The position numbers and the translations under genes were made by a program. The notes below the pieces were generated by a model, which saw only the letters and a list, made by a program, of their open reading frames with translations, did not search any database and had not been told where the DNA came from. From a virus, in the IMG/VR virus record IMGVR_UViG_3300042520_003271, positions 22,913-86,912 of that record: DNA of 64,000 bases; one strand, given 5' to 3'. Positions 1,727 to 40,420 of this stretch are shown one piece after another. The stretch's first letter is position 1, and each line of letters opens with the position of its first letter.

Positions 1727-4384
1727 CTAAATGTTGTAAAGTGGCAATTTATATTTTGTCCCGTTTATAGCAGTAGAAAGGTAAGCTGCAGGAGTACTGG
1801 GCAAACTCGATGCAGAGCCTGAATTAGCAAAATTTTCAGTACCTGTTCCGTCAGAATTCCCGAGAAGCTTACCGCCAGCGCCGCCAATAGAGAATAAGTT
1901 AGGGATCACTAAACCATCGGCTGCTAAGCATATTCTGTTAAACATTGCGCCAGCGCCAGCTAAAGTAGGCATGATCACAAGTGCGCCTGGTGTGAATCCG
2001 GTGCAAAGCGTGTTTGAACTTCCGAGTACGGTTAATGATGTGAATCGTGCTGGCTCCAAAGCCTGCGCCTTTCCTGTAAAGGTATTTGTGGGGCTTGTGC
2101 CTGCAAAGAAAGCACCGTCATCGCCTCTTCCTATAGCGTAGACTGTGCCGTTATTCATTTTAAAATAAACATCGTATTCATTTATGACTAAGCATTGGGT
2201 CGGTAATACAAAGTAAGGTGGTGTTGCTGTCGGCGTGATGATATCTAGTTTTGTATAAGATAATGAATTAAAGTATGGAAATATCTTGCCAGTCATAAAA
2301 GCATTTCCGACGGCTGTAACCACCACTGCACATTCATAGCCACAGGATATCGACACTATGCTAGATGTATCATATTCTGGAGTGCCTCCAAGGATCACTT
2401 TAATAAATAGAGGTACTATCTGTGGGGTGTTGTAATTTGTAGTATTCCCCAAGCCGAGCTGCCCGACATCATTTTTTCCAAATGCTATTAAACGATTATC
2501 GCTTCTAACAGCCATTATAAAGGACTTTCCGCATTTGACCTTTGTATAAGTAGACGATCCGACAAGGGCGAAAGTGTTAGTAGAGCCACCTGTTGTGCCA
2601 TTACCTAATTGACCAAATGTATTATCGCCCATCGTGTAAAGACTATTGCCTTTGATTCCAGCCCAAGTCGTCTTCCCAGTAGCGTAATCGCGCGCCGCTG
2701 AGATTGCTGTCCAAGCCCCAGTAGCGTTGGAGTCTATTAGAACTAAAGTATTACTTTTTGTCGCTGGATTAATCTGTCCACAACCATACAATGACCCGTC
2801 TGTTAGAATTACATAAGTTCCATTGGCATATGCACACACCTCTCTTATTCTTACACCTAAATCCCAGCCAGGATAAGTCCATGGTATAAGCGTATATGTA
2901 TACCTTGGTGTAGTATCGCCAAGCCCCAATTGACCAGCCTCATTATCACCGCAAACATATATCCTGTCTAATTCGACAGGGCTAGCATTGCTAGCTGGCT
3001 TTACCAATGCTACATTATGAGTCTGGCCGCCAGCCAACATGGAAACGTTATCTCCCACACTATAATCAGCGACAGGAATTATCGAAGCAGATACACCAAA
3101 CGGATAGACTTTAAGCGGTGATTCTGGTGGTCCGACGCCGAACTTACCGCTACCATATCCACCAGAAAAGGCAGCTCCCAGCGACCCAACGCCAGGCAAA
3201 TTATTATTGTTAGGTGTCAAAAAAGAACCAGATTTATATCCTATCGAAACGCCATTAGATGAGCCTGTAGAATAAACGCCTATAGCTATGCATCCGGCCG
3301 GTTTGCCTGTGGTGACTATGAAAGGTTTAATTATCCCAGCGCCACTTCCTAATATAACATGGTTAGTTCCATCTACTCGGTCTCTATAGAAGCTAGTAGG
3401 TGTAGCATCATTGCCAATATAAACAGACGATTCAAGTCCGTTCATTTGTAGTGAGCTATATGGCATAGTGTTAGACTGAAGGATAACTGTAGATGTTTTA
3501 AATATAAAATTAACAGGATAAGTGATTAAGGTAGTTATCGGATTTCCGATTAGTATTGATTGCACCATTCTTATGCTAATGTTTGATATCTTATTCCTAG
3601 GATGACCGCTCCATGTCTGGCCGATTATAATACCAGAGTAATCTGGTGTACCACCAAGGTTCGGATATCCTCCGATGCAAATTGAGTCACTTTGTGCGCT
3701 ACCGCCTGGTGTGTTTAGATCTTGAATATTACTTATAACGATCGATTTGGTGCCTGAATTGTTATAGATGCCGCTACCGAGCATAATATTATTAGAATTA
3801 CTTGGAAGATTATTCCCACCAACCGGAACGCTATAGCCAATGCTTATCGAATTATCATTTATAGATTTAGATACTGCATAACTACCTAAAGCGACACACT
3901 GCCTAGAATAAGCATCTTCCATCGCTCTTTGACCGACAGCGACATTGTTTTCGTTTATAGCATTGTTACTATTGCTCTTAACGCCGATGCTCATCGACCC
4001 AGATGCTTTGTCGTACATCCAACTGCTGGATGAATATAATGATTTTCCGTAGTTTCCGATAAAACCAGAAATATTTTCTTCTTCGTCTTGATCAGGATTA
4101 TAATTTTCAAGACTTGTGTATAAAGGGCTCGATAGATTATTCTGACCTTTTATGGTAAAGTCTGTTATGACTGGAGGTATTACAATTCCTGTCGTAGCTC
4201 CAGCAAAAGTCACAAAGCCCTTGGTATTTATTCTTAAAGTCGGCACTGTGCCGATCGATCCAAAGGTGCCAGAATTAACACCAGAGCATTTGAGGTCGAG
4301 TTGGTAATATGGATTGTCAGGGTCCTTTTGCGGTGGCGACACAAAGTTGATAGTTTTTAGATTGTATACAATATTATTGTTCAT
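1727..4384 (-). CDS. Tail fibre-like protein with beta-roll repeats and RCC1 repeats
   Basis: 885 aa; RCC1 motifs CGDNEAGQLGLG, MGDNTFGQLGNG, FGKNDVGQLGLG; C-terminus shared with ORF 79-1719. Confidence 0.7.
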   Translation of the reverse strand: MNNNIVYNLKTINFVSPPQKDPDNPYYQLDLKCSGVNSGTFGSIGTVPTLRINTKGFVTFAGATTGIVIPPVITDFTIKGQNNLSSPLYTSLENYNPDQDEEENISGFIGNYGKSLYSSSSWMYDKASGSMSIGVKSNSNNAINENNVAVGQRAMEDAYSRQCVALGSYAVSKSINDNSISIGYSVPVGGNNLPSNSNNIMLGSGIYNNSGTKSIVISNIQDLNTPGGSAQSDSICIGGYPNLGGTPDYSGIIIGQTWSGHPRNKISNISIRMVQSILIGNPITTLITYPVNFIFKTSTVILQSNTMPYSSLQMNGLESSVYIGNDATPTSFYRDRVDGTNHVILGSGAGIIKPFIVTTGKPAGCIAIGVYSTGSSNGVSIGYKSGSFLTPNNNNLPGVGSLGAAFSGGYGSGKFGVGPPESPLKVYPFGVSASIIPVADYSVGDNVSMLAGGQTHNVALVKPASNASPVELDRIYVCGDNEAGQLGLGDTTPRYTYTLIPWTYPGWDLGVRIREVCAYANGTYVILTDGSLYGCGQINPATKSNTLVLIDSNATGAWTAISAARDYATGKTTWAGIKGNSLYTMGDNTFGQLGNGTTGGSTNTFALVGSSTYTKVKCGKSFIMAVRSDNRLIAFGKNDVGQLGLGNTTNYNTPQIVPLFIKVILGGTPEYDTSSIVSISCGYECAVVVTAVGNAFMTGKIFPYFNSLSYTKLDIITPTATPPYFVLPTQCLVINEYDVYFKMNNGTVYAIGRGDDGAFFAGTSPTNTFTGKAQALEPARFTSLTVLGSSNTLCTGFTPGALVIMPTLAGAGAMFNRICLAADGLVIPNLFSIGGAGGKLLGNSDGTGTENFANSGSASSLPSTPAAYLSTAINGTKYKLPLYNI

Positions 4385-4392
4385 TTTTTGCT

Positions 4393-7300
4393 CTATAAGA
4401 CCGTTATACCTGTAGCATCTGTAGCCTGTGTGTCAAGTGCTATTTTTCCTATCACGTATCTCGTCATACCATTGGGCGTACCATTATTATCTCTTAGTAT
4501 CTCGATGTAACTTAGTTCGAACGCGCTGACTGTTTGCGTTGCAGTAGTATAGGTGATTGGCCCCATGATAGTATAAATCGCATCATTATTTCTGCCATTG
4601 AATGCTAAGCTACTACCGGCCCAACACATCCTTATCGTGCTTATACCTTGGCGCCCGACACCAGGGTCAGGTAATGGTATTACCCCTAACGAAATCGGTA
4701 TAATGTCTGCAAAAGGCCCAGCTGAATTATCGGTCTTAATATAATAAACGTACAATATGTTGCTAGGTAGCGGAGGGTAGCCAACCCAAGCACCACCGAT
4801 GGCAAACATTTGGCCGCTCGGACTAACTGTAATGTTATCGAAAGGCAAGTTAGCAAAATCAGCACCAATTTTTGTGATGCCGCCGCCAGCTGGTTTGGTC
4901 ATAAAATAAAAAGGAAGCGTTCTTATCGTAGGATAATCAACAACGGCTCTATATGAATTCTGGCCGACCATGCAATAGGGGCCAACCATATTATAATCGC
5001 TTGACGTATCGCCTAGCGATGTCCATGCGCCCGTTGTCGTATTAATAGTACCTACTTGTCGCTTAATATTATTAATGTCTGGGAATGAAATAGCATACAG
5101 AGTACCATTATAAGCTGATATCTGTCCGAATCTATTATAAGGCAGATTAACGTTAGATATGCTTAAAGTGGCTGCCGTTTGTTCATTTATTCTTCTCAAT
5201 TGTGATTGACCTGACACAAAAGTAGTGCCGATCACTAAATTCGTTCCAACTGGTAATCTTGGATATACTAATGGTGTAGGTGTTACTGGTGTTGGCGTTG
5301 GTGGGCAATATATTCTATCATATACTAAAATATCGCCTGTTGCTCCGGCGCCGCTGAGCACATAGAGCGTTGTATTAGCAGAGTTAATACTGATCTCATT
5401 TCCGTATACCACACTTAATAGTGTTTGCCCAGTCCAAGCAATGTTACCAGTAGATGGATATATGATGTATTCATAGAGCCTATTAAATTGAAAATCAGCA
5501 ATATACAAAGAATTATCGACTGTTGCGAGTATACCATTGGTGCGCGTCCCAGCAAGCCCGACGGACGTGCTTGGTGTCGACGCATAATTAATATCACCGC
5601 TAGAGGTATCTCTTGTAAAGGCCGATATTAAGCTATTACCTATGCCAGAAACGAAGATATATTTTTCAGAACAGGCAAATGTAGCTTGGCGAGGGTTTAA
5701 ACTTGCAACATTTAACTCTCGAATTAAAGTCAGAGCTCCATTGCTAGCAGTCCTGCTGAATGCTTTAATCTTAGCAGCGGTAGCTGATACATGATATAAA
5801 AATTTTCCATCGCTAGAACCGAGCATGTAACAGACTTCTCCGACAATAGGAGTCGATAAAATAACGCTTGTCTTATCTGGTATACCGGTGCTTCCTGAAA
5901 TCTTCACAATCCTTATAGCATTAGCCATAGATACGTAAAGATATGCATCGTCTGGTGAAACGTATATTCTCGCACCATTAAAAGCGTTGTTAAATCTAGT
6001 GTCTGTATCAAGCAATAATAGTAAAGCTGTACTGCCAGAATCTCTTTTGAATGTGATTAAACCGCTCTGTGTTATTATATAAATGAAGTTTTGAGAAGAA
6101 GTCATTGCTATATCATGAGGGTTTAAGGCAGCTAGGTATGAAGCATCGAAGCTTAATGAACCATCTGAATTTATAACAAACACAGATATAGAGTTAGATC
6201 CAATGTCAGCTGTGCACAGGATCTTGGTACCATATTTTTCTGATATAATCATAGCTATATGGCTACCGCCAGCAGAAGCTGTTTGTCTTAGCGTTAATTT
6301 ACCACATTGGACGATAGGTGTCGGCGTTGGCGTTGGCGTTGGCGTTGGCGTTGGCGTCGGTGTTGGAACTGGCACGCAGGTAATTTTGGCATACCTTATA
6401 TCGCTTGTATCAGTAATAAGGTAATTGCCGTTGACATTATCCCAGCTGGCCGGATCACCTTTAAATGACGGTATATTAATTGTGATGGTGTCACCGGCTG
6501 TAAACTTTTTCAAGCTTACGACAGGGAGGTTACTGTCTAACGTTGGCTGGCCGTTATTTAAAAAAGCGATGGAAAAAACACCAGAGCCAAGGTTATTTAA
6601 AGTTATCGAATATAGCGTTGTGCCGCTTGCAGCATAGCCATTGAATCCAGCACCATTGCTTGAAAGAATAGTATCACCAGTATATAGCGGAATTGTTATT
6701 TTTCCGATCGTAGAACTCCAACCAGAAAAGCAATCTGATCTGCGTGACGCTACGCTACAAAATATGTAAGGGTCATTGAACCCAAATGCCTCGACCGCCC
6801 CCGCGATATTTGGTATTTTAGTAAAATTATAAACGCTTTTATTCATATAATCAGCTAGGCCAGGAGGAAGAAACCCAGAAGCATATGCTGTCCCATCATT
6901 TTTTATAACTATGCTAAAGTCATCGCCAGCATGGACGGTTTTCCAATCTCTGTCAGTGCTTAATTGTATAAATTTATTAGAATCTAACCTTGAGTTGTTT
7001 CCGAGCTGGCCACTATTATTTCGGCCAGTACCGACCAAAAGACCGCCAGGAAGGATAGCTAAGGTATGGTTTCTGCCAGCTGATACTACTAAAGAATTAT
7101 CAAGAGCCTTTATATAAAAATTACTTACTGGTGTAATAGTGTTGCCTGTACCGCACTGACCGGAACTGTTGTCGCCGTATGCCGTCCAAGTCGTACCCCC
7201 AGCAATTGGATCCTTAGTCACTTTGAAGTAAGAGTCGTAGCCACTATATGCATATTTTGGGATCTCATCGATCGTATAAAGCGTTGAAGCCTCTTCCTCC

Positions 7301-24435: not shown

Positions 24436-25594
24436 GTTCCCTCTGTATATTACTGTATTTATATTCTCGCCATTTCTTACCAATGCCGTATCTTAAAGGA
24501 AAATAAATATCTCTATCTATCAGCCCATCAAGCGGTTTCGACATAATCGATTTTACACTATTTATCATATATTGTATACTGCTCCGGTCGTTTTCACAAG
24601 ACATTACTAAAGAATCATGGATATCGCATATAATATGTCTTGGAAATAAAGCATTAACTTTTGTAATAGTGTTTTGCATAGCATGGGCTATAGACCCTTG
24701 TAAAACACCATTTATGCCTGATAATATTGTCTTTTCCTTTGGTATAACAAATTTACGGCCTAATAAAGTTTCTAAAGGTACATCCTCAGTCAATTTATGC
24801 GCACATTCAATAAGCCAAGTCTTTAGGTCGCCATAACATATGTCAAATATGCCACTATCGAAATTAAGAGAATTTATCGCTTTAAGAAGAGCTATCTTAC
24901 TGTCTTTGCGGTCTGTAAACATATTACCGGCACGATCAAAAAGATACTCGTAGGGATCACCATGCCTGAAAGCAGATTCCAATTCATCGTCTCCGGAAAC
25001 TACCGATGCGATTCTAAGATCGGCGCAGATCCAGTCGAAATGCAACAATACTTTATCCTCAAAACTCCCGTCCCTTGTGATGAAATCAGGCATGTTATAG
25101 CCTTGAATATTAAAACCTGTGCATTTGCTTCTGCCAGTAAAAGTGTCATGCGACCAAGATGATTTCAGTGGTGTATAATTTACATAAATTGGTAAATCTG
25201 AAAGCTTATCATAAACGCAACCAGCGTCGAATAATAGTTTTTTATATGGTTCTTGAACAGAAGCATCTGTGGATGCTAAAAATTCATCGAGGGCACTTGT
25301 TTCATGAATTATTTGGTTATGATCGAAGATGTTGTCGGCGATAGCTCTATTGCTATAACCCATAGCGGCGATCAGTGATGCGCGATCGTTTGTGACTATC
25401 GCGCATCTGGTGCTAACCGCATGATCGAATAATGTTTTAATCTTGGACTGGTCTATTCTAATATCACTTATGCATTTTGTGTTGCTATTATCAAAAAGGA
25501 TTTGTTTATATATCTTTTGGTCGCGTTTTATACCTATGATGGCTGGATATGCGACTTGTCTTCCTCTTTTGATAGCGAATAGAATTGGCTTCAT
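24395..25594 (-). CDS. Minimal family A DNA polymerase (polymerase domain only)
   Basis: TFTGR, NIQ, motif A FDWICADLR, motif B RKDSK, TLLGR, N.VLQGS.A, motif C IHDSL. Confidence 0.8.
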   Translation of the reverse strand: MKPILFAIKRGRQVAYPAIIGIKRDQKIYKQILFDNSNTKCISDIRIDQSKIKTLFDHAVSTRCAIVTNDRASLIAAMGYSNRAIADNIFDHNQIIHETSALDEFLASTDASVQEPYKKLLFDAGCVYDKLSDLPIYVNYTPLKSSWSHDTFTGRSKCTGFNIQGYNMPDFITRDGSFEDKVLLHFDWICADLRIASVVSGDDELESAFRHGDPYEYLFDRAGNMFTDRKDSKIALLKAINSLNFDSGIFDICYGDLKTWLIECAHKLTEDVPLETLLGRKFVIPKEKTILSGINGVLQGSIAHAMQNTITKVNALFPRHIICDIHDSLVMSCENDRSSIQYMINSVKSIMSKPLDGLIDRDIYFPLRYGIGKKWREYKYSNIQREHEQQETAEDTSES

Positions 25595-33301: not shown

Positions 33302-33826
33302 TTATTCTAATAGGTCATCGTCATTGAATGGTTCACTAGCTAATTTCATGATGTTGTCTTCATTCGAGACAACATCATTAGTCTTTGCTTTAATATCTAC
33401 CTTACATAGTTTCTTGGGCGTTACTTTTTTATCAGCCTTAATAGTTCCAGTCTTTACCGGTGTACTAGCTATTTGTGGATATAAGAAGGTATCTAGACTT
33501 AGATCTTCAAGAAATGGATTAAGGAATGGGTCTTCATAATGTATATTATCGGTCTGTATTTCATCTCTTGTTTTTCTTATACCTTTAAAGCATTCACAAT
33601 AATAGTAACCATTAAGGTCATACATATCTAATATTTCGACCAAAGAGGCGCAATTGGGGCATGTAAGAACAGCCTTCGTAGCTCTAACTTGATCGCCAAG
33701 CGCGCTCTTCTTGGTGTGTTGATCGACCATATAAGAATTCCATTCTGTCGGCCTCGCATGCGTTAAGACATTATTCAATAGTATTTCATGTAAATCGTAT
33801 GGGTTAGCTGGTAACATTCCAATCAC
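33302..33826 (-). CDS. Hypothetical zinc-ribbon protein
   Basis: CPNC...CEC. Confidence 0.55.
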   Translation of the reverse strand: MIGMLPANPYDLHEILLNNVLTHARPTEWNSYMVDQHTKKSALGDQVRATKAVLTCPNCASLVEILDMYDLNGYYYCECFKGIRKTRDEIQTDNIHYEDPFLNPFLEDLSLDTFLYPQIASTPVKTGTIKADKKVTPKKLCKVDIKAKTNDVVSNEDNIMKLASEPFNDDDLLE

Positions 33827-34349
33827 TTCCTTCTTGATGTTTATACTTTTCTTTTCTGACAGCGAAGCTATTCAAGATCTCTGGTGTTAAAAAGATCTCT
33901 ATTAACTTTTTATCAGTATGTACTTCAGCTTTCCTAACATATTTCACAGACCCGCACTTACATACTGTTGTCGGTGAGTGGGCTTGAAGACCGCACTGTT
34001 CGCAAGTGAATGGCACACCGGTTTGCTTTACAGTAGCACCAGTCACAGTAGCATAATAATATGTTTTTAATAGCATAAGGTCTATACCAGATAAATCACA
34101 ATATCTAGATCCTGTCTTTTTACTTGTATTTTGGTTAATTTCTACTATTTTGTCTTGAAGTTTTTCATAGCATAAGCTGCAATAATCGAACGTGTCGACC
34201 ACTGGTGACGAATCTAAATCTCGTAATGTTAAATGCTGCCCGAATTTCGATTTAGCGCTTCTAAAATCTATCGAATAGTATGTAAAATCTTCGTGGAACT
34301 GTAGCCCGCAACCGTCGCATTTAATCCCGTCTTTCGTCGGCAGCTGCAT
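33804..34349 (-). CDS. Hypothetical multi-zinc-finger protein
   Basis: CDGC, CSLC, CEQC, CKC motifs. Confidence 0.6.
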   Translation of the reverse strand: MQLPTKDGIKCDGCGLQFHEDFTYYSIDFRSAKSKFGQHLTLRDLDSSPVVDTFDYCSLCYEKLQDKIVEINQNTSKKTGSRYCDLSGIDLMLLKTYYYATVTGATVKQTGVPFTCEQCGLQAHSPTTVCKCGSVKYVRKAEVHTDKKLIEIFLTPEILNSFAVRKEKYKHQEGSDWNVTS

Positions 34350-37044
34350 TAATTTGCTTTCTCTTCAGGATGTTGATTGAGGTATTGCGCCGTAAAGAAA
34401 AACTATTTCTCTCACCATCATAATCGACAATTACTCTAATTCCAGCGCCAATAACTAATTTAGTCTTGTCTAAACCCGATAATTCTTTAGACCACACCAT
34501 AATGCTTGTCTTTAACATACCATCAGACGCAGATATCTTGGCGTATGGTTTATTATTCTTTGAAGTAGCGTATTCTATATTTACAATTATACCTTCGATG
34601 GCTATGATGTCTTGGCCAGATTTCGCATTAGATTTTGCGGCAGCGATTGTAAGGTCACCTCTACTGTAAAACAGCCCTAAAGGTGAATCGATATAATATC
34701 CCAAATATTCGTTCTGAAATTCTAATCTTTCCTCGAAACTGAAATCATCGCCGATAGCGCCAAGAACGGCACAAAAATCAATGATTGGCTCTGGTTTCCA
34801 ATTCAGTAATTTTTTGGGTATTGCCTTTTTCTTAGGATAGATTATTCTGTATTCGCTGACGAGTCTTTCTCTCTCAGCCGCAATAGAGCCCTCATTCCAT
34901 CCTTGTTTAGAAATAATGAGGTGGGAGATGAAGTTTTTAGTCTCCTTTGCTTCTGGCCCATTGCCATACTTCGTTTGATAATAAACCCACAAAGCCTTGC
35001 TATTATTGTGTCTTTCAAGATTTCTGAATGCCCCAAGCTTAATTAACCGTTCTAATACCGTTTTAGATTTTATTCCGGTTTTTAAAATAAAATCATCCAT
35101 GCTTGCATATTTGTGTGTAGTGATTAGACATTCAGCTATCTTTTCACCAAATCCCTTTATACTGCTGACACCAACAAATATCGTGTTATCTTTTACTATG
35201 AATTTTAATGACAAATTATTGATATCGATGGCTTCAAACCGTAACGGGTCATCTGATCTGCTTGAACCGAGTTTTGTTATCGCTGTTGGCTTCCATTCTT
35301 CAGATCTCGCTACACCCATGTAACGCACGAGCTTGTCCGGATGACAATCATTCATGACAGATGCCCAAAACTCTGGAGCAAAATGCGCCTTTAAAAATAA
35401 GCATCGAAGAGTTACTAAACAATAAGCGACAGAATGTGATTTATTAAATGCGTAGCGGCCGAAAGACACCATTTTAGACCATATAGCACGTGCTTCGTCT
35501 TCGCCGATGGTTTTTGATGCGCCGGCCACCCACTTCTGCTCAACGCTTCTAAGTTTATGTGTCCACTTTTTAGCAACGGCCTTTCTTGTCTCTTGTGCTT
35601 CTGGTGCTGTAAAACCCGCAAGCCTTTGCCATAATTGTGTCAATTGCTCTTGGTAAACTAATTGCCCATATGTTTCTTTAAGAATATTATAGACTTCTGG
35701 GTGCATGCGCTTCTTCCAAGCCATAGTGGGATCGTCGCGGTTAGCCATGGTTTCTGGTAACGCGGCGATCGGCCCTGGATGGCCCATGGCATTTATTAAC
35801 ATTAAATCTTCGAAATTTCTAACACCGTGAGCTAGTAGGGACATGGCCAATTCGGTATCGAATTGGAAGATGCCATCGCATTTTTGAGTATTTGCTAGCT
35901 TTAGAGCACCATCATCATCGAGACTTATAATATGCTTAACACCGGAAGCATCGATAAAAAAGCCGGCTTTACGTTGTTTAGGATCGATGTCTTCCCAGCC
36001 CGATAGATTCTCGCCAAAATTGATGTCACGATTAAACTTGACCATCTCACAACATCTAAAAATATATTCTAAGGTTTTTAATCCTAGCCAATCCCATTTT
36101 ACATAGCCAAATTTAGACAATTGTGTGCTTCTGCCCTCTGTCCACATGCTAACCCAGTAGCCTTTATTACTACTTTTGGCCATGGGTATATTACCAAACA
36201 GTGCTCTGTCTGTTATTAATAATGCGCCAGCGTGCATGCCCATGTTTCTTATTCTGCCTACTAATTTTATCGCTGATGCTATGATTTCTGGGTTTTTAGT
36301 AGCAAAATCTTTAAGAACTGGTAGTTCTTCGATAAGTTGGCCGATAGTCGGAGCGTCTGTGACGGATTGCTTACACGATGGGCATACAGCTTCGCCGTGG
36401 ATAGTGCCACACTCGGTCTCAACGCCTTCCTTTAGAAATTTACCTCTGCAGACTGATATGCCATTTTCTGGTAAATCATCAGCGTGCTCTGGTAATTGTG
36501 TGGTCGTTCTTTCAGCATCAAATCTAGACATTATTCCGAGAGCTACAGAGACATCAATTATTGCAGATTTAAATTTATAAGTTTGCCATGTGCCAACGCT
36601 GCAAACAGAACCATAACTGTCTTCCGATTTTTGGCCATATTTAGAGATCACGTATTCTTTTAAATGATCTCTGGCGCCAGGCAAGCAATCTATATCGATA
36701 TCCGGCATGTCAGAATCTCTGTAGATTCCTGTCGGCATTTTACCGTTGTTTTTATCTTTATATTTAAGAACATCATTAGCAGATATGCTAGTCATTATAT
36801 CGCTATGATCTGTAGAAATCGGATCTTCAGCTACTATATTTAAAAGATATGGCAGTAATAAACGATTTGGATTTTTTTCAAAAGATGCGCCTTCGGTCAC
36901 TAATTCTAGCCAATAGCGTTCTGCTCCTTGCTTCTCTATTTCATAAATTTCGAATTTGAGTCTGTCTTTATATATTTGTGGTTTGTCTAAAACAAATTCA
37001 CCAGCCTTCTCGACGATTTCTTCCCAAGATTTAATGTTTCGCAT
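34321..37044 (-). CDS. dnaE: DNA polymerase III alpha subunit, C-terminal part (palm aspartates, thumb, fingers, HhH, OB)
   Basis: MPDIDID, GMHAGA, KWDWLGLKTL, GIFQF, ETYGQLVYQEQ, YAFNKSHSVAY, IKGFG, C-terminal OB fold; no PHP domain. Confidence 0.93.
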   Translation of the reverse strand: MRNIKSWEEIVEKAGEFVLDKPQIYKDRLKFEIYEIEKQGAERYWLELVTEGASFEKNPNRLLLPYLLNIVAEDPISTDHSDIMTSISANDVLKYKDKNNGKMPTGIYRDSDMPDIDIDCLPGARDHLKEYVISKYGQKSEDSYGSVCSVGTWQTYKFKSAIIDVSVALGIMSRFDAERTTTQLPEHADDLPENGISVCRGKFLKEGVETECGTIHGEAVCPSCKQSVTDAPTIGQLIEELPVLKDFATKNPEIIASAIKLVGRIRNMGMHAGALLITDRALFGNIPMAKSSNKGYWVSMWTEGRSTQLSKFGYVKWDWLGLKTLEYIFRCCEMVKFNRDINFGENLSGWEDIDPKQRKAGFFIDASGVKHIISLDDDGALKLANTQKCDGIFQFDTELAMSLLAHGVRNFEDLMLINAMGHPGPIAALPETMANRDDPTMAWKKRMHPEVYNILKETYGQLVYQEQLTQLWQRLAGFTAPEAQETRKAVAKKWTHKLRSVEQKWVAGASKTIGEDEARAIWSKMVSFGRYAFNKSHSVAYCLVTLRCLFLKAHFAPEFWASVMNDCHPDKLVRYMGVARSEEWKPTAITKLGSSRSDDPLRFEAIDINNLSLKFIVKDNTIFVGVSSIKGFGEKIAECLITTHKYASMDDFILKTGIKSKTVLERLIKLGAFRNLERHNNSKALWVYYQTKYGNGPEAKETKNFISHLIISKQGWNEGSIAAERERLVSEYRIIYPKKKAIPKKLLNWKPEPIIDFCAVLGAIGDDFSFEERLEFQNEYLGYYIDSPLGLFYSRGDLTIAAAKSNAKSGQDIIAIEGIIVNIEYATSKNNKPYAKISASDGMLKTSIMVWSKELSGLDKTKLVIGAGIRVIVDYDGERNSFSLRRNTSINILKRKQINAAADERRD

Positions 37045-37375
37045 TTAAATGGTTCGTAAGCCCAGAAGTAGAGGTGAAGCTTTTACCGCATTTTTTGCAG
37101 CTTAGCTTCTTTATATCATTTTCAATACATTTAGATTCTTCAGCTGACGGGACAGAATCAAAATCGACGACAAAAGGTCTTTTAATGGTCATTTTCTTGG
37201 TTTTTTCATCTTGATGCGTAATGGCATAGTATAAATACTGTCCCTTAGAACGTATACCTTTAATCGTTTTAAGTCTTTCTTCGTTAGATTTTAATCTTAC
37301 TATATCAACAATATTTTCAGTGTGCGCTTCCATAATGATGAAAGCATATTTATCGTACTCACCTTTATGGTCCAT
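37031..37375 (-). CDS. Protein with a C-terminal classical C2H2 zinc finger
   Basis: CKKCGKSFTSTSGLTNHLNAKH; GAGG RBS. Confidence 0.75.
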   Translation of the reverse strand: MDHKGEYDKYAFIIMEAHTENIVDIVRLKSNEERLKTIKGIRSKGQYLYYAITHQDEKTKKMTIKRPFVVDFDSVPSAEESKCIENDIKKLSCKKCGKSFTSTSGLTNHLNAKH

Positions 37376-37431
37376 AATTTCCTCATAATATATAGAAGAT
37401 CTTAACTACGCATTCTACTAGTAAAATTATT

Positions 37432-37869
37432 TTAATCGATTAGTACGGTGCCGGTATCGTGATATTCTGATTTGGACATCAATAAATATTTTTTGATTTT
37501 ATTAACATATTCATTGCCCAAAGCTAGCATGTTAGCATCAAAAAATACACTGTTATGACGTTGGCATATTTTAATAATACGTTTTTTTAAATCGTCGAAA
37601 TAGAGTTTCTTATCGTCTGACGCGCCATATAAATCATTCGATTCAAACCCCAACATACTGATTCTGATCGTCTGATTGATATCTTTAATCGCTGATAGGC
37701 CGACGAAGATAGCTTGATACTTATATATAGTGTCATCAGTCATTTTTAATTTAAATGCGATATCGCGCCGTTGTGTCTTATTTTTTTTACCATTCTTCTT
37801 AATTAATGTAACGACAATCTTAGAATTAATTTTAGAATTATCTAATCTGTTTATTTGCATTTCTAACAT
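37432..37869 (-). CDS. Hypothetical protein with weak RNase H-fold resemblance
   Basis: 145 aa; YQAIFVGLSAI..IRI resembles an RNase H helix-strand unit, but catalytic acids are not evident. Confidence 0.45.
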   Translation of the reverse strand: MLEMQINRLDNSKINSKIVVTLIKKNGKKNKTQRRDIAFKLKMTDDTIYKYQAIFVGLSAIKDINQTIRISMLGFESNDLYGASDDKKLYFDDLKKRIIKICQRHNSVFFDANMLALGNEYVNKIKKYLLMSKSEYHDTGTVLID

Positions 37870-38294
37870 ATCTGGTTCCCATTTACATCTTTTATTTTAA
37901 TTTCTTCAGAAAGACCGCAGAAGTTAAATAGCGTCATCGCTTTAGCGACCTCAACTACAGCTTTGTCATATTTATCTTCTAGCTTAGTAACACCTACTGA
38001 CTTAACATCTATCGTATGAGAATTAAGAGCATTTCTGGTATTAAGCATTGCTGATCCTAGTACTTTAGCTGAATCGGCGGCCTCTTTTTCTAGACGATCG
38101 ATGGTCTCGACAATACTTGAAATGATATTGTTTATAATGTTTATTAGCAAATCGAAAGATTCTTTTTCTATTCTGACTTTATCGTCATCTACAAGAATAT
38201 CGATGAATTTTAGTGAAAAGCAACATAATGTTTCTGTTGGTTTTTGCATGACTTTTAAATGTGTTTTTAAAGCGTGCAATAAATACTTCTGCAA
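37863..38294 (-). CDS. Hypothetical helical protein
   Basis: 143 aa, TTG start after AAAGGAG. Confidence 0.55.
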   Translation of the reverse strand: MQKYLLHALKTHLKVMQKPTETLCCFSLKFIDILVDDDKVRIEKESFDLLINIINNIISSIVETIDRLEKEAADSAKVLGSAMLNTRNALNSHTIDVKSVGVTKLEDKYDKAVVEVAKAMTLFNFCGLSEEIKIKDVNGNQIC

Positions 38295-38295
38295 A

Positions 38296-39696
38296 CTAAT
38301 CTCCTTTTGTCATCTTAACATTAAGCATATAACCACCGCGGCTCGGTGCTAAAAACCTATCAAACGAAAGACCCCAAGAAAGTGGGTCAACAGATGTAAT
38401 ATTTAATAAGTAGCATATCAAAGAACCACCAGCGCTGCCTCTAGCAGTGAAAGGCCAGCCTTGTTCTTTGCCATATTCAATAATATTTTTAGTAATCAGG
38501 AAGTAACTAGCAAAACCTTTTTCTATGAAGCGATTTAATTCGATCTTGGCTTGGTCTAAGTACGTGACTTCTCGTCCATCGATCAAGTATTTAAGTTCGT
38601 TTTTATGGAGTCCTAGCGATATAAGCTTCGATGCGACCAAACGCCTTAATTCATTATCAGCGTCTACGATGGTCGGTATTTTAGGGTCAGTATCGAATTC
38701 GATATTTTCGCATTTGTCGGCTATTTCAAGCGTATGGTCACACATTAATTCGAATTCTCTAGCAGTATATCCTTTTGAATATTCAGTACCATTATATCTA
38801 CTCCACAGTTCGCTTCGCTGTTTAAAGTATTGCTCGTCACTGTTCGTGTGGAATAAATCCGGAGAGTCAACAGTTACGTCTTGAGCTATCGCCATCATGA
38901 TCTTCTGGATTTGAAAATCTTTTCTTTCCATGTAGTGCGAATCGTTTGCCAACACAGTCTTAATCTTGAAATGCTCGGCTAACATGATCGATGTCTGAAA
39001 TACAAACATATCGCCTTCTACCCCAGGCATTTGTAGTTCTATGTAATAGTCCTCTCCGAACGCTTCTTTGAATTTTTTGATGTTGGCGATAGCGTTTTCT
39101 AGCCTTTCTTTTCGGCTAATTTCTCTGATAATATCGCCGGCTTTATTAACTATCGATTTAGTACGCAATTCATGACTTACTGGACCGTTAAGACAACCTG
39201 ATAGAATGATAAGTCCTTCGCGATATTCGCATAGCTTCTCGAACCATATACGATTATACTGTTTGATAGATACGCCAAAAAGACCTGTCTCGTATGCTTG
39301 AGTAGTTAACTTTAGGAGATTCTCGAATCCGGTCTTGTTTTTGCAAATTACTGTAAGATGTCTATTTCTTATAATTCTTCCTGCTAACTCTGGATTCTCT
39401 TTTCTCCATTCTTGCGATCTAACATTTATTCCACTCGCTAAAAGCTCTTGTCTCTTTAGTTCGAAATCATTATAGTATATCTCACACCCAGGGATGTATT
39501 TGACACCATATTGTTTAAAAGCAGCGTAGGCTTCAGGAACACTGGCCATATGACCGTGTTCGGTAATAGCCATCGCTTGATACTTCCTTTTATAACAAGC
39601 TTCGGCATATTGGGCCGGAGAGGCTACTCCATCGAGCATACTATAAAGTGTGTGTGAGTGAAGATGAACAAAATCTGATGAGCCTTGATATTCCAT
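38296..39696 (-). CDS. dnaE: DNA polymerase III alpha subunit, N-terminal part (PHP domain plus first palm segment)
   Basis: FVHLHSHTLYSMLDG, AITEHG, PGCE, LSGC, NDSHY, ELNRFIEKGFASYFLI, RGSAGGSL, FDRFLAPSR, then stop. Confidence 0.93.
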   Translation of the reverse strand: MEYQGSSDFVHLHSHTLYSMLDGVASPAQYAEACYKRKYQAMAITEHGHMASVPEAYAAFKQYGVKYIPGCEIYYNDFELKRQELLASGINVRSQEWRKENPELAGRIIRNRHLTVICKNKTGFENLLKLTTQAYETGLFGVSIKQYNRIWFEKLCEYREGLIILSGCLNGPVSHELRTKSIVNKAGDIIREISRKERLENAIANIKKFKEAFGEDYYIELQMPGVEGDMFVFQTSIMLAEHFKIKTVLANDSHYMERKDFQIQKIMMAIAQDVTVDSPDLFHTNSDEQYFKQRSELWSRYNGTEYSKGYTAREFELMCDHTLEIADKCENIEFDTDPKIPTIVDADNELRRLVASKLISLGLHKNELKYLIDGREVTYLDQAKIELNRFIEKGFASYFLITKNIIEYGKEQGWPFTARGSAGGSLICYLLNITSVDPLSWGLSFDRFLAPSRGGYMLNVKMTKGD

Positions 39697-39709
39697 ATTA
39701 TCTCCTATA

Positions 39710-40420
39710 CTATGAAGATAATACAGTTTCTAATCCATTTTTCTTACCTTTTGGGGCTTTGATTTTCTCGAAAGATTGGATAATGTTAGGGTATCTAATG
39801 TTAGAAGTGTAGACTTCCTGTGTATTAAGAAACATGCTGGCAGAATTTATAAGGTCGTCGGGCGTTGCCATCTTTATGTCTACATGTTGCTCTTTTAACC
39901 GACCAAGAAAGCTATCAATAACTCTAGTCTCAGTAGGGTTCAATATAGCGATCCGGTCTCTAAGTCTTCTCAGAAAAAGCTCTAGACCTAATTCACCATT
40001 TTTTTGGCGGTGTGCTTCAAAATTATCTCTAAGATTAGGTAAAACTACTCTGTCGATTGTTTCTAAATTAAGTAATTCAACGTCATAGATTTTTAATAAT
40101 CCGCCAATCAGATCATTTTTAAATAGATGAGTGACAAATTCTGATAAAAGAATGGCAAGGTCCTTTATTACTATCGATTCACGTCCTTGCAGGAAAAAAT
40201 TAACAAAAAGCTTTAGATTTAAAATACCATGAGCCCATAAGGTGTTTTTAAATAACCAATCATCGATATTCTGGATCGCAAGCCTAGCTCCTGATTGATC
40301 ATGTACTGTAAAATTATCCATGTCAATGATATATATAGTCTCTTTTATTAGAATAGCTACTAAACTACCATCGACATGGATTATATTCATTATTCGAACA
40401 TCTCTGCTGCTGTCAAGCAC
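39710..40420 (-). CDS. Hypothetical protein
   Basis: 236-aa ORF; start possibly MNIIH. Confidence 0.55.
   Translation of the reverse strand: MLDSSRDVRIMNIIHVDGSLVAILIKETIYIIDMDNFTVHDQSGARLAIQNIDDWLFKNTLWAHGILNLKLFVNFFLQGRESIVIKDLAILLSEFVTHLFKNDLIGGLLKIYDVELLNLETIDRVVLPNLRDNFEAHRQKNGELGLELFLRRLRDRIAILNPTETRVIDSFLGRLKEQHVDIKMATPDDLINSASMFLNTQEVYTSNIRYPNIIQSFEKIKAPKGKKNGLETVLSS

Follow-up and report, generated by a model that had tools for sequence, protein, structure and literature searches.

DnaE, the alpha subunit of DNA polymerase III (Pol III alpha), is a single chain in the structures solved from E. coli (2HNH/5FKU), T. aquaticus (2HPI/3E0D) and M. tuberculosis (7PU7/5LEW). Split forms have also been described. 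In cyanobacteria DnaE is encoded by two genes that carry a naturally split intein (Wu 1998; Caspi 2003, as cited in the accessible parts of PMC2677866 and PMC3919608), and the available text of Dassa et al. 2009 (PMC2677866) reports that in marine and freshwater metagenomes some DnaE loci are ‘fractured’ and contain split inteins as well as homing endonuclease genes that stand free. For group 2.2 jumbo phages the accessible portion of Iyer et al. 2021 (PMC7824862) describes a minimal Pol III alpha that is split into an N-terminal NTP (nucleoside triphosphate)-binding protein and a C-terminal Mg2+- and template-binding protein; the two are encoded by distant genes, accompany a family B polymerase and comprise only the catalytic core and the template-binding domain. 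Timinskas et al. 2014 (PMC3919608), in the text available, name DnaEs that are split by inteins or frameshifted, and no others. Here we analyse a 64,000-nucleotide stretch (the window) of the IMG/VR viral contig IMGVR_UViG_3300042520_003271 (positions 22,913 to 86,912 of that record), which encodes a two-gene, intein-free DnaE of a large uncultured phage. We conclude that the palm subdomain at the boundary between the two genes is encoded twice: once, with its motifs, at the end of the first protein (the N-half) and once, diverged and without them, at the start of the second (the C-half). Splitting of phage DnaE is known; an overlapping copy of the boundary subdomain is apparently undescribed, since a search of the open main-text literature turned up no report of a split DnaE whose palm subdomain is duplicated in this overlapping way.

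The PHP, palm, fingers and HhH regions of single-chain DnaE are all recognisable in the two proteins, and profile matches to the solved single-chain structures range from E 1e-47 to 9e-54 for the N-half and from E 4e-65 to 6e-56 for the C-half. Unlike single-chain DnaE, the enzyme consists of two polypeptides whose genes are separated by 1.25 kb and three further genes, contains the first palm subdomain twice, and carries a four-cysteine insert. The OB domain also goes undetected: the C-half has no match to PF01336 (tRNA_anti-codon) at a Pfam E of 0.1 or below, and an alignment of C-half profile positions 777-861 with Taq 998-1089 is weak (E 10 for that stretch).

The cyanobacterial halves bear intein fragments and are spliced into one chain, whereas here no intein family is found and a duplicated subdomain stands at the junction. 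Further, the cyanobacterial break lies far downstream of the active site, unlike the phage split. A trans-spliced split intein would place its N-fragment at the end of the first gene and its C-fragment, with a final HN before C/S/T, at the start of the second. An intein at the junction in the window was considered and rejected: neither half matches an intein or Hint family (Pfam, E <= 0.1), and the C-half opens with a palm-like segment. Nor is an alternative genetic code needed, both halves being open under table 11.

The split described by Iyer et al. falls, to judge from the accessible part of PMC7824862, at the same boundary as that of the window, between the NTP-binding and the Mg2+-binding subdomains (Pfam positions 98|99, and the partition of motifs). 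In other respects the two differ: in our phage a PHP domain is present in the N-half and fingers and HhH in the C-half, and the two genes are close together, 1.25 kb apart. That part of the Iyer et al. description makes no mention of a second copy of the NTP-binding subdomain (PMC7824862). The loci of Dassa et al., as presented in the available text, resemble ours in being aquatic metagenomic dnaE genes in pieces. Mobile endonuclease genes occupy their gaps, and relatives of the window's DnaE show comparable invasion: L046 (L numbers denote related loci) has an HNH/homing-endonuclease-like ORF (open reading frame). Those loci, however, carry active split inteins with their catalytic residues, whereas the window junction is without them and its gap holds conserved genes that are not endonucleases.

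The N-half and C-half ORFs lie on the same strand, 1.25 kb apart, with three small ORFs between them. The N-half contains PHP (PF02811, residues 11-222, E 2e-35) and its family profile aligns to E. coli alpha 83-397 and to M. tuberculosis through 412/418; the C-half contains the finger domain (PF17657, residues 366-511, E 1.8e-27) and HHH_6 (PF14579, residues 604-680, E 6.6e-12). The Pfam family PF07733 is divided between the halves, with positions 17-98 at N-half 373-453 and positions 99-260 at C-half 111-321. Likewise, phrog_405 (the intact phage DnaE family) matches with positions 42-439 in the N-half and with positions 440-1048 in the C-half from residue 111. Because both families resume only at C-half residue 111, residues 1-110 of the C-half, encoded at 36715-37044 on the minus strand, are extra. 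They comprise what we call the head and the linker. The main features, with the evidence for each, are as follows.

38296..39696, minus strand: N-half of the split DnaE (PHP and first palm subdomain), an ORF of 466 amino acids; Pfam and family profile.
34321..37044, minus strand: C-half of the split DnaE (head, linker, catalytic palm, fingers, HhH), an ORF of 907 amino acids; Pfam.
36811..37044, minus strand: head, C-half residues 1-78, the motif-less second copy of the first palm subdomain; BLASTP, hidden Markov model (HMM) and structure matches.
36715..36810, minus strand: linker, C-half residues 79-110; linker lengths across the family.
38299..38664, minus strand: N-half tail, residues 345-466, where the duplicated palm subdomain has its canonical form and bears the motifs; Pfam and family profile.
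38422..38442, minus strand: RGSAGGS, R419-S425, the G[GS] loop, in the N-half only; R419, G420, S421, G424 and S425 invariant in 75 sequences.
38338..38358, minus strand: RFLAPSR, R447-R453, N-half; R447, F448 and R453 invariant in 75 sequences.
38311..38337, minus strand: GGYMLNVKM, N-half residues 454-462, the conserved end of the N-half; G454, G455 and L458 invariant in 75 sequences.
36685..36708, minus strand: MPDIDIDC, M113-C120, the catalytic aspartate strand, in the C-half only; P114, D115, D117 and D119 invariant in 77 sequences.
36373..36450, minus strand: four-cysteine insert (C199/C212/C221/C224) in the palm/thumb region of the C-half; all four cysteines invariant in 77 sequences.

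In the Pol-beta-like fold the G[GS] loop must adjoin the metal-binding aspartates. The palm elements of that fold (the G[GS] loop, the DxD strand and the third aspartate) are complete in this phage, but spread over two chains. The N-half carries RGSAGGS, which we take to be the nucleotide-binding loop, and RFLAPSR; the C-half carries the aspartates, of which D115, D117 and D119 are invariant and D279 is nearly so among 77 sequences, and its PDIDID strand aligns from Taq residue 461 onward. The same partition holds throughout the family: RGSxxGS is present in 117 of 121 N-halves and RF.xPxR in 109 of 121, neither occurs in any of the 121 heads, and no N-half (0/121) has DxDxD within its last 60 residues. 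The initial annotation of this DNA, which described the C-half copy as lacking RGSAGGS and RFLxPxR, is borne out. With the G[GS] loop and the aspartates on separate chains, the active site must therefore be rebuilt from both.

All 121 family members have the head (at least 65.8 bits, starting by residue 16). Its core averages 50% pairwise identity; the corresponding means are 61% in the catalytic palm, 66% in the fingers, 41% over the final 200 residues and 55% over the C-half as a whole (the N-half tail, residues 373-462, stands at 78%). The head moreover has invariant residues of its own (E32 and Q39 in 77 sequences) and eleven that are conserved in at least 90%: R28, L29, F31, E35, K38, G40, W45, N58, P65, D74 and P75. 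Presence, identity and private invariant residues indicate that the copy is selected and not decaying; ‘degenerate’, the term first applied to it, is misleading.

The resemblance of the head to the N-half tail is a confirmed observation. The initial annotation had noted that the first ~110 residues of the C-half, at the coordinates given above, parallel the end of the N-half, and the top BLASTP alignment of the two ends reproduces this parallel: N-half 369-440 aligns with C-half 16-77 at 25% identity over 72 columns (E 3e-4, a value that holds for a single pairwise comparison). Evidence for what the head is comes also from its comparison with intact polymerases. An AlphaFold2 model of the head alone has four helices and a predicted local distance difference test (pLDDT) score of 96.2. 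In a structural alignment of this model against 48,161 PDB representatives, run with no Foldseek pre-filter, seven chains were matched at Z >= 5, and all seven are C-family polymerases (DnaE or PolC): Z is 5.1-7.5, the root-mean-square deviation (rmsd) 2.4-3.2 A, and 74-76 of 76 residues are aligned, with the next row at Z 4.1. The matched segments are E. coli alpha 282-384, M. tuberculosis 309/311-404 and PolC ~825-915. With Foldseek, C-family polymerases make up 14 of the 15 rows shown.

The profile evidence points to the same segment. Family alignments were built from 77 C-halves (A1), 75 N-halves (A2) and the head only (A4, 44 distinct sequences). An HMM from the head alignment was run on 81 intact DnaEs, drawn from the search for longer N-half relatives and mutually related, and in 81/81 the best domain falls immediately upstream of PDxDxD. 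The top scores are 13-15 bits (maximum 14.8, P ~1e-6) and cover HMM positions 3-74, and P is below 1e-4 in 21 of the 81; scores on controls do not exceed 0.5 bits (81 reversed sequences) and 4.7 bits (810 shuffled sequences). Two intact phage DnaE ORFs score 14.4 bits (L008) and 13.2 bits (L068) at the same canonical place. A BLASTP alignment of C-half 1-360 with the intact DnaE of Bacillus phage DZ1 is collinear over residues 23-331, running through the head, a gap opposite DZ1 ARGSAGGS, an insertion in the linker of our phage, and then PDIDID. In Pfam, PF07733 is the sole match on the heads of two relatives (positions 6-45, E 0.18; positions 13-91, E 0.047); four heads submitted to Pfam gave one sub-threshold PF07733 match and two unrelated weak matches. 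The head is, we conclude, homologous to the first palm subdomain (E. coli alpha ~282-384), though diverged, and that subdomain is thus encoded twice.

How the two copies might be arranged was modelled with the N-half and C-half residues 1-530, each with its own family alignment. The interaction prediction score from aligned errors (ipSAE) is 0.85 in each of three runs and 0.00 in the best of three controls; in calibration 116 of 157 solved complexes passed the mark, as did 2 of 215 mismatched pairs. The three runs have 93% or more of their contacts in common, and partner pLDDT does not fall below 82. The two halves are thus predicted to bind each other, through N-half residues 391-422 (the first palm helix and the GS loop at 408-422) and 451-463 and through C-half residues 31-65 and 84-96 (head and linker), 106-121 (the aspartate strand) and 277-280. 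Predicted contact pairs include N-half 458 with C-half 35 and N-half 456 with C-half 108; altogether 59 of the 122 N-half tail residues fall within the predicted interface. Head positions conserved in at least 90% are in contact more often (10/14) than others (11/64; Fisher P 1.5e-4).

A monomer model of C-half 1-360 (pLDDT 87.1) adds to this picture. In the four best rows its palm core superposes on DnaE at 3-4.4 A with Z 9.6-12, the rigid matches beginning at residues 108-117, while alignments that take in the head stand at ~12 A rmsd (10.7-13.3 across rows), which hints that the head lies off the canonical position in that model. The whole model could not place the head, and the head was therefore folded alone. 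Taken together, the predicted contacts, the misfit of head-inclusive alignments and the invariant GS loop of the N-half make it most likely that the N-half copy sits at the active site and that the head and the conserved end of the N-half form a docking surface. The initial annotation suggested that the C-half copy may act as a folding cap or as a domain-swap interface; in the complex model the head does contact the N-half, and the contact lists do not tell these two roles apart.

The reading that we favour, at a probability of roughly 0.6, is that the active site is built from both chains, that the head is a conserved, motif-less docking copy and that the overlap is the trace of a fission. 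The cut passes through the Pol-beta-like catalytic core. The N-half (PHP plus first palm subdomain) supplies the nucleotide-binding G[GS] loop and RFLxPxR, and its copy of the subdomain would most likely take the canonical place beside the aspartates; the C-half supplies the catalytic aspartates, the fingers and the DNA-binding parts. The C-half's own copy of the first palm subdomain has lost its nucleotide-binding motifs and yet stays under selection, and the head and the GGYMLNxxM end of the N-half would together form a docking surface that joins the chains non-covalently. In the course of fission both products would first have retained the boundary subdomain and then shed complementary motifs. 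An origin by duplication and complementary loss is plausible. It is close to what was first proposed, namely a partial duplication followed by subfunctionalisation. The overlap and the complementary motifs agree with that proposal; no fused or intermediate form, which would speak for a duplication in place, occurs among the matches listed.

Across the family the split is the norm. A C-half search gave 2484 relatives at E <= 0.001, of which the best 120 span 877-1397 amino acids and lack PHP domains without exception (intein families account for the long members); the best 120 N-half relatives are 446-502 amino acids long. Longer N-half relatives exist: the 39 closest listed have 831-1324 amino acids and 40-70% identity, lack finger and HhH domains, and in many cases carry intein or Hint families. 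After these 39 the score falls from 352 to 181 bits, and the next matches are full-length DnaEs with at most 34% identity. Neither a fused gene with an internal repeat nor a pair of full-length paralogues was present among the matches listed or in 69 loci. All of 7 loci and 44 of 52 others (L010-L061) have an N-half upstream of the C-half, on the strand that encodes it; in the remaining eight a contig end intervenes or no N-half lies inside the 5-kb flank.

A different origin is possible, if unlikely: the halves could derive from two different full-length dnaE genes – of co-infecting phages, for example, or of phage and host – each truncated and both keeping the overlap, with no partial duplication within one gene. 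Intact DnaEs from bacteria and from other phages score 13-15 bits with the head HMM, as against at most 6.9 bits for the family's own N-half tails, and these higher scores on foreign enzymes are the reason why a two-gene origin has to be entertained. In its favour also, the halves differ in rate, the N-half being 60-66% and the C-half 48-52% identical to the same relatives, and no fused close relative occurs among the matches listed. The scores on outsiders can, however, be explained by the changed first helix of the N-half tail (YLDQAKIELNRF against the canonical Y.xRL.xEL), and the ~60 alignable residues are too short for a tree. The end state and function would in any case be identical to those of the fission that we favour.

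It is rather doubtful that the head is a pseudo-nucleotide-binding subdomain which the N-half copy displaces from the canonical slot and which then re-docks outside as a clamp. Were this so, the head in the canonical slot would keep the half-palm of a free C-half folded and inactive, and the displaced head would amount to a built-in assembly switch of a replicative polymerase with a two-chain active site; sister lineages would have turned the head module into a free-standing third subunit.

A reversal of roles, in which the head packs canonically on the C-half palm and the N-half tail lends its GS loop from outside, is more improbable again. The head does keep the canonical helices Y.xRL.FE...I...G..YW and LL.xLLG...DP better than the N-half tail does, relatives with short linkers show the canonical 12-16 residues between DP[ILV] and PDIDID, and head pLDDT in the C-half monomer model is 89-97. 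Yet head-inclusive alignments of that same model are at ~12 A, compared with 3-4.4 A for the palm core in the top four rows. In the complex, moreover, it is the N-half GS loop (408-422) and the RFLxPSR/GGYML end that are predicted to touch the aspartate strand. The N-half motifs there are invariant, which fits the canonical place, and the adjacency of G[GS] loop and aspartates in the Pol-beta-like fold likewise favours the N-half copy at the active site.

Several results weigh against our reading, and we gather them here. Direct profile similarity between the two segments, whose absence the initial annotation named as refuting the parallel, is not significant: hhalign of A1 against A2 ranks the BLASTP-type head/tail alignment top, but with E 0.2 and a probability of 0.3 (whole proteins), and the comparison of trimmed head and N-half tail segments is not significant (P 0.083). 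This direct test is too narrow, because each segment maps independently to the same canonical piece of DnaE. The head HMM scores at most 6.9 bits on the family's own N-half tails, with 5.1 bits (P 1.3e-3) for the tail in the window, and its median over the 81 related intact DnaEs is just 2.2 bits. The structural Z of 5-7.5 is modest and within the range that helical units can reach by themselves; Foldseek with the head model gave nothing at E <= 0.001, its E-values being 0.69 or worse; the Pfam matches on heads are all below the cut-off; and the head profile matched no PDB sequence at E <= 10. A head-only profile run against 1.84 billion representative proteins gave 180 matches at E <= 1e-3. 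In the best 150 of these 180 the matched protein is small or C-half-like and begins with the head (save for P0369, where the match is at residue 63, and P0372, at residue 51), and no match lies 300-400 residues inside an intact DnaE. As for the models, the monomer is indirect evidence for the position of the head, the complex score can owe much to likeness with solved single-chain DnaE structures, and the position of the head relative to the N-half tail is taken from the contact lists only.

That the head is an unrelated helical N-terminal domain that resembles the palm subdomain by chance or convergence is very improbable: the non-significant hhalign comparisons (E 0.2; trimmed P 0.083), the lack of a PDB sequence match or of an intact DnaE among the best 150 of 180 head-profile matches, and a structural Z below 8 would all suit it, but the top 7 of 48,161 structural matches share one family and one segment, 81 of 81 best HMM domains are at the expected place with up to 14.8 bits against 4.7 for shuffles, PF07733, the only DnaE-type Pfam family, is the sole match on two heads and in the proper profile range, and the alignment to the intact DnaE of phage DZ1 is collinear.

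The head is not everywhere fused to the polymerase in the same way. In several branches 12-16 residues, the canonical distance, separate DP[ILV] from PDIDID (short-linker forms are L022, L036, L044, L047-L049, L053, L054, L059 and L061). L040/41, L043, L045, L046 and L050 encode the head in an ORF of its own, ~130 amino acids long, which consists of the head and a beta-rich stretch of ~50, and 35 of 148 newly listed head-profile matches are 111-200 amino acids long. The head is therefore an autonomous module that is always kept. The free-standing genes are listed below.

L040/41 4995-5390 and L046 4962-5387: free-standing head genes; also present in L043, L045 and L050; proteins P0244-P0302.

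The beta-rich stretch after the free-standing head ends in ...GDEL and recalls a dead intein/Hint fragment, yet no Hint family is matched (Pfam). In L046 the free-standing head gene is separated from the remaining C-half by an ORF of 307 amino acids (5313-6236, minus strand) that gives weak matches to homing-endonuclease, HNH and TnsA-like families. Inteins (Intein_splicing, LAGLIDADG_3, Hint_2) occur in many N-halves (P0391-P0429) and in some C-halves (P0075, P0081, P0115, P0118); the split DnaE family is a frequent target of mobile elements. In L073 (~4140-4602) a canonical DnaE (...RFLNPERRSMP) is interrupted by ~400 bases exactly before (D)LDIDSDF; the interruption looks like an intron at the catalytic motif.

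More distantly, L072 (26% identity, 2032-5571) is split at the same place, with its two genes directly adjacent (GTT TAA ATG). Its C-part begins, in the same register, with a weakly head-like stretch (3.9 bits, P 3e-3). Its N-part ends ...GRMLNAGRLMQYDFGV, closing in GRLMQYDFGV; the N-half in the window reads ...RGGYMLNVKMTKGD at its C-terminus, and the commonest ending in the family is GGYMLN[VLI]xM. Since the L072 ending resembles a catalytic strand without aspartates, GGYMLNVKM may be a relic of such a strand.

In the free-head branch an ORF of ~47 amino acids (MKIVKINIIRGN...GIPHR.EY..DLPDI) stops within PDxDxD, and the polymerase resumes in another frame. The contigs concerned are L045 (=L081), L046 (=L083), L050 (=L082), L085 and L086, and also L043 and L040/L041. 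The site CCG GAY ATA TAG AT is common to five contigs of three lineages (61-65% nucleotide identity around it), and the canonical PDIDxD would be restored if the Ile tRNA re-paired two bases further along (AUA to AUA). In L043 the site is GAT GTT TGA CAT, which would allow a +1 shift like that of prfB or possibly an ATG restart giving MFDIDLL; in L040/41 it is GAC TAG T GAC ATT, which would allow a GAC-to-GAC hop or possibly has its own upstream GTG start. A DNA-pattern search of viral contigs gave no in-frame form of the CCG GAY ATA TAG AT site, that is, one without the two extra bases. From these sequences, programmed recoding may take place inside the active site of the polymerase.

The surroundings of the two genes in the window include the following.

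37863..38294, minus strand: first intervening gene, 143 amino acids; kept in relatives (BLASTP).
37432..37869, minus strand: second intervening gene, 145 amino acids, in a slot that differs between lineages; ORF.
37031..37375, minus strand: third intervening gene, 114 amino acids, with a C-terminal C2H2 zinc finger; Pfam zf-C2H2, E 1.3e-5.
33804..34349, minus strand: cysteine-rich gene directly downstream of the C-half; N-terminal part conserved in relatives (BLASTP).

The 143-residue gene has BLASTP homologues in L003 (163 amino acids, E 7e-12) and L007 (160 amino acids, E 8e-6), and matches no PHROG family and no Pfam family above threshold (FANCI_HD1, at E 0.08, is below the cut-off). The 145-residue gene has no match to the middle genes of relatives at E <= 0.1 (best E 0.52, L041) and none to a Pfam or PHROG family; in several relatives another, conserved gene of ~150-170 amino acids occupies the middle slot. 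The zinc-finger gene, which shares 14 bases with the start of the C-half, has BLASTP homologues in L003 (150 amino acids, E 1e-8), L005 (210 amino acids) and L007 (202 amino acids), and in relatives too a C2H2 zinc-finger gene lies immediately upstream of the C-half. The cysteine-rich gene matches genes of 76-77 amino acids that follow the C-half in L041 (E 1e-8) and in L046 (E 3e-11). The first and last gap genes and the downstream cysteine-rich gene recur in lineages that are 35-50% identical, and these conserved flanking genes may encode accessory proteins of the polymerase. Within the C-half itself, the four-cysteine insert (36373-36450, minus strand) is missing from the aligned part of Taq DnaE; C199/C212/C221/C224 may bind zinc.

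The source record is a viral contig of 86,912 bases that is estimated to be ~24% complete, and the phage must therefore be very large. Within this 87-kb record, itself only ~24% of the genome, there is no match to the family B polymerase PF00136. An open frame of 401 amino acids at ~24464-24835 of the window (minus strand; G000:C1:47376-47747) matches PF00476 positions 248-381 with E 7.5e-8; given this match to the C-terminal part of the family A polymerase domain, the split DnaE is not the sole polymerase-like gene of the record. Megablast of positions 34000-40000 of the window against a phage collection that may lack records close to the window gave no match, and tblastn of the C-half against the same collection gave nothing above 60% identity and no place covering 80% of the query.

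A precedent for fission by duplication may exist in eukaryotes: the monkey-king family of Drosophila, reported by Wang et al. in 2004, is said to have undergone gene fission via duplication and complementary degeneration. As in that family, two products each keep part of the ancestral gene, and here the overlapping relic and the complementary loss of motifs are visible. Unlike monkey-king, which is eukaryotic and involves whole-gene duplicates, the overlap in the phage enzyme has gained conserved residues of its own and lies inside a catalytic fold.

Split polymerases are usually attributed to inteins or to clean cuts between domains; here the cut crosses the catalytic fold itself, and the family has long preserved a second copy of the boundary subdomain that lacks the motifs. 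The split DnaE family is large, with hundreds of clusters in aquatic metagenomes, and the arrangement is therefore a successful design and not an accident. If our reading is correct, then the overlap would still show how an essential enzyme can come to be split while lethal intermediates are avoided – by retaining an overlap first and losing complementary parts later – and the head would be a case in nature where a pseudo-subdomain has been taken over as an interface between proteins. Because it occurs naturally in two or three pieces, this DnaE is amenable to reconstitution and study.

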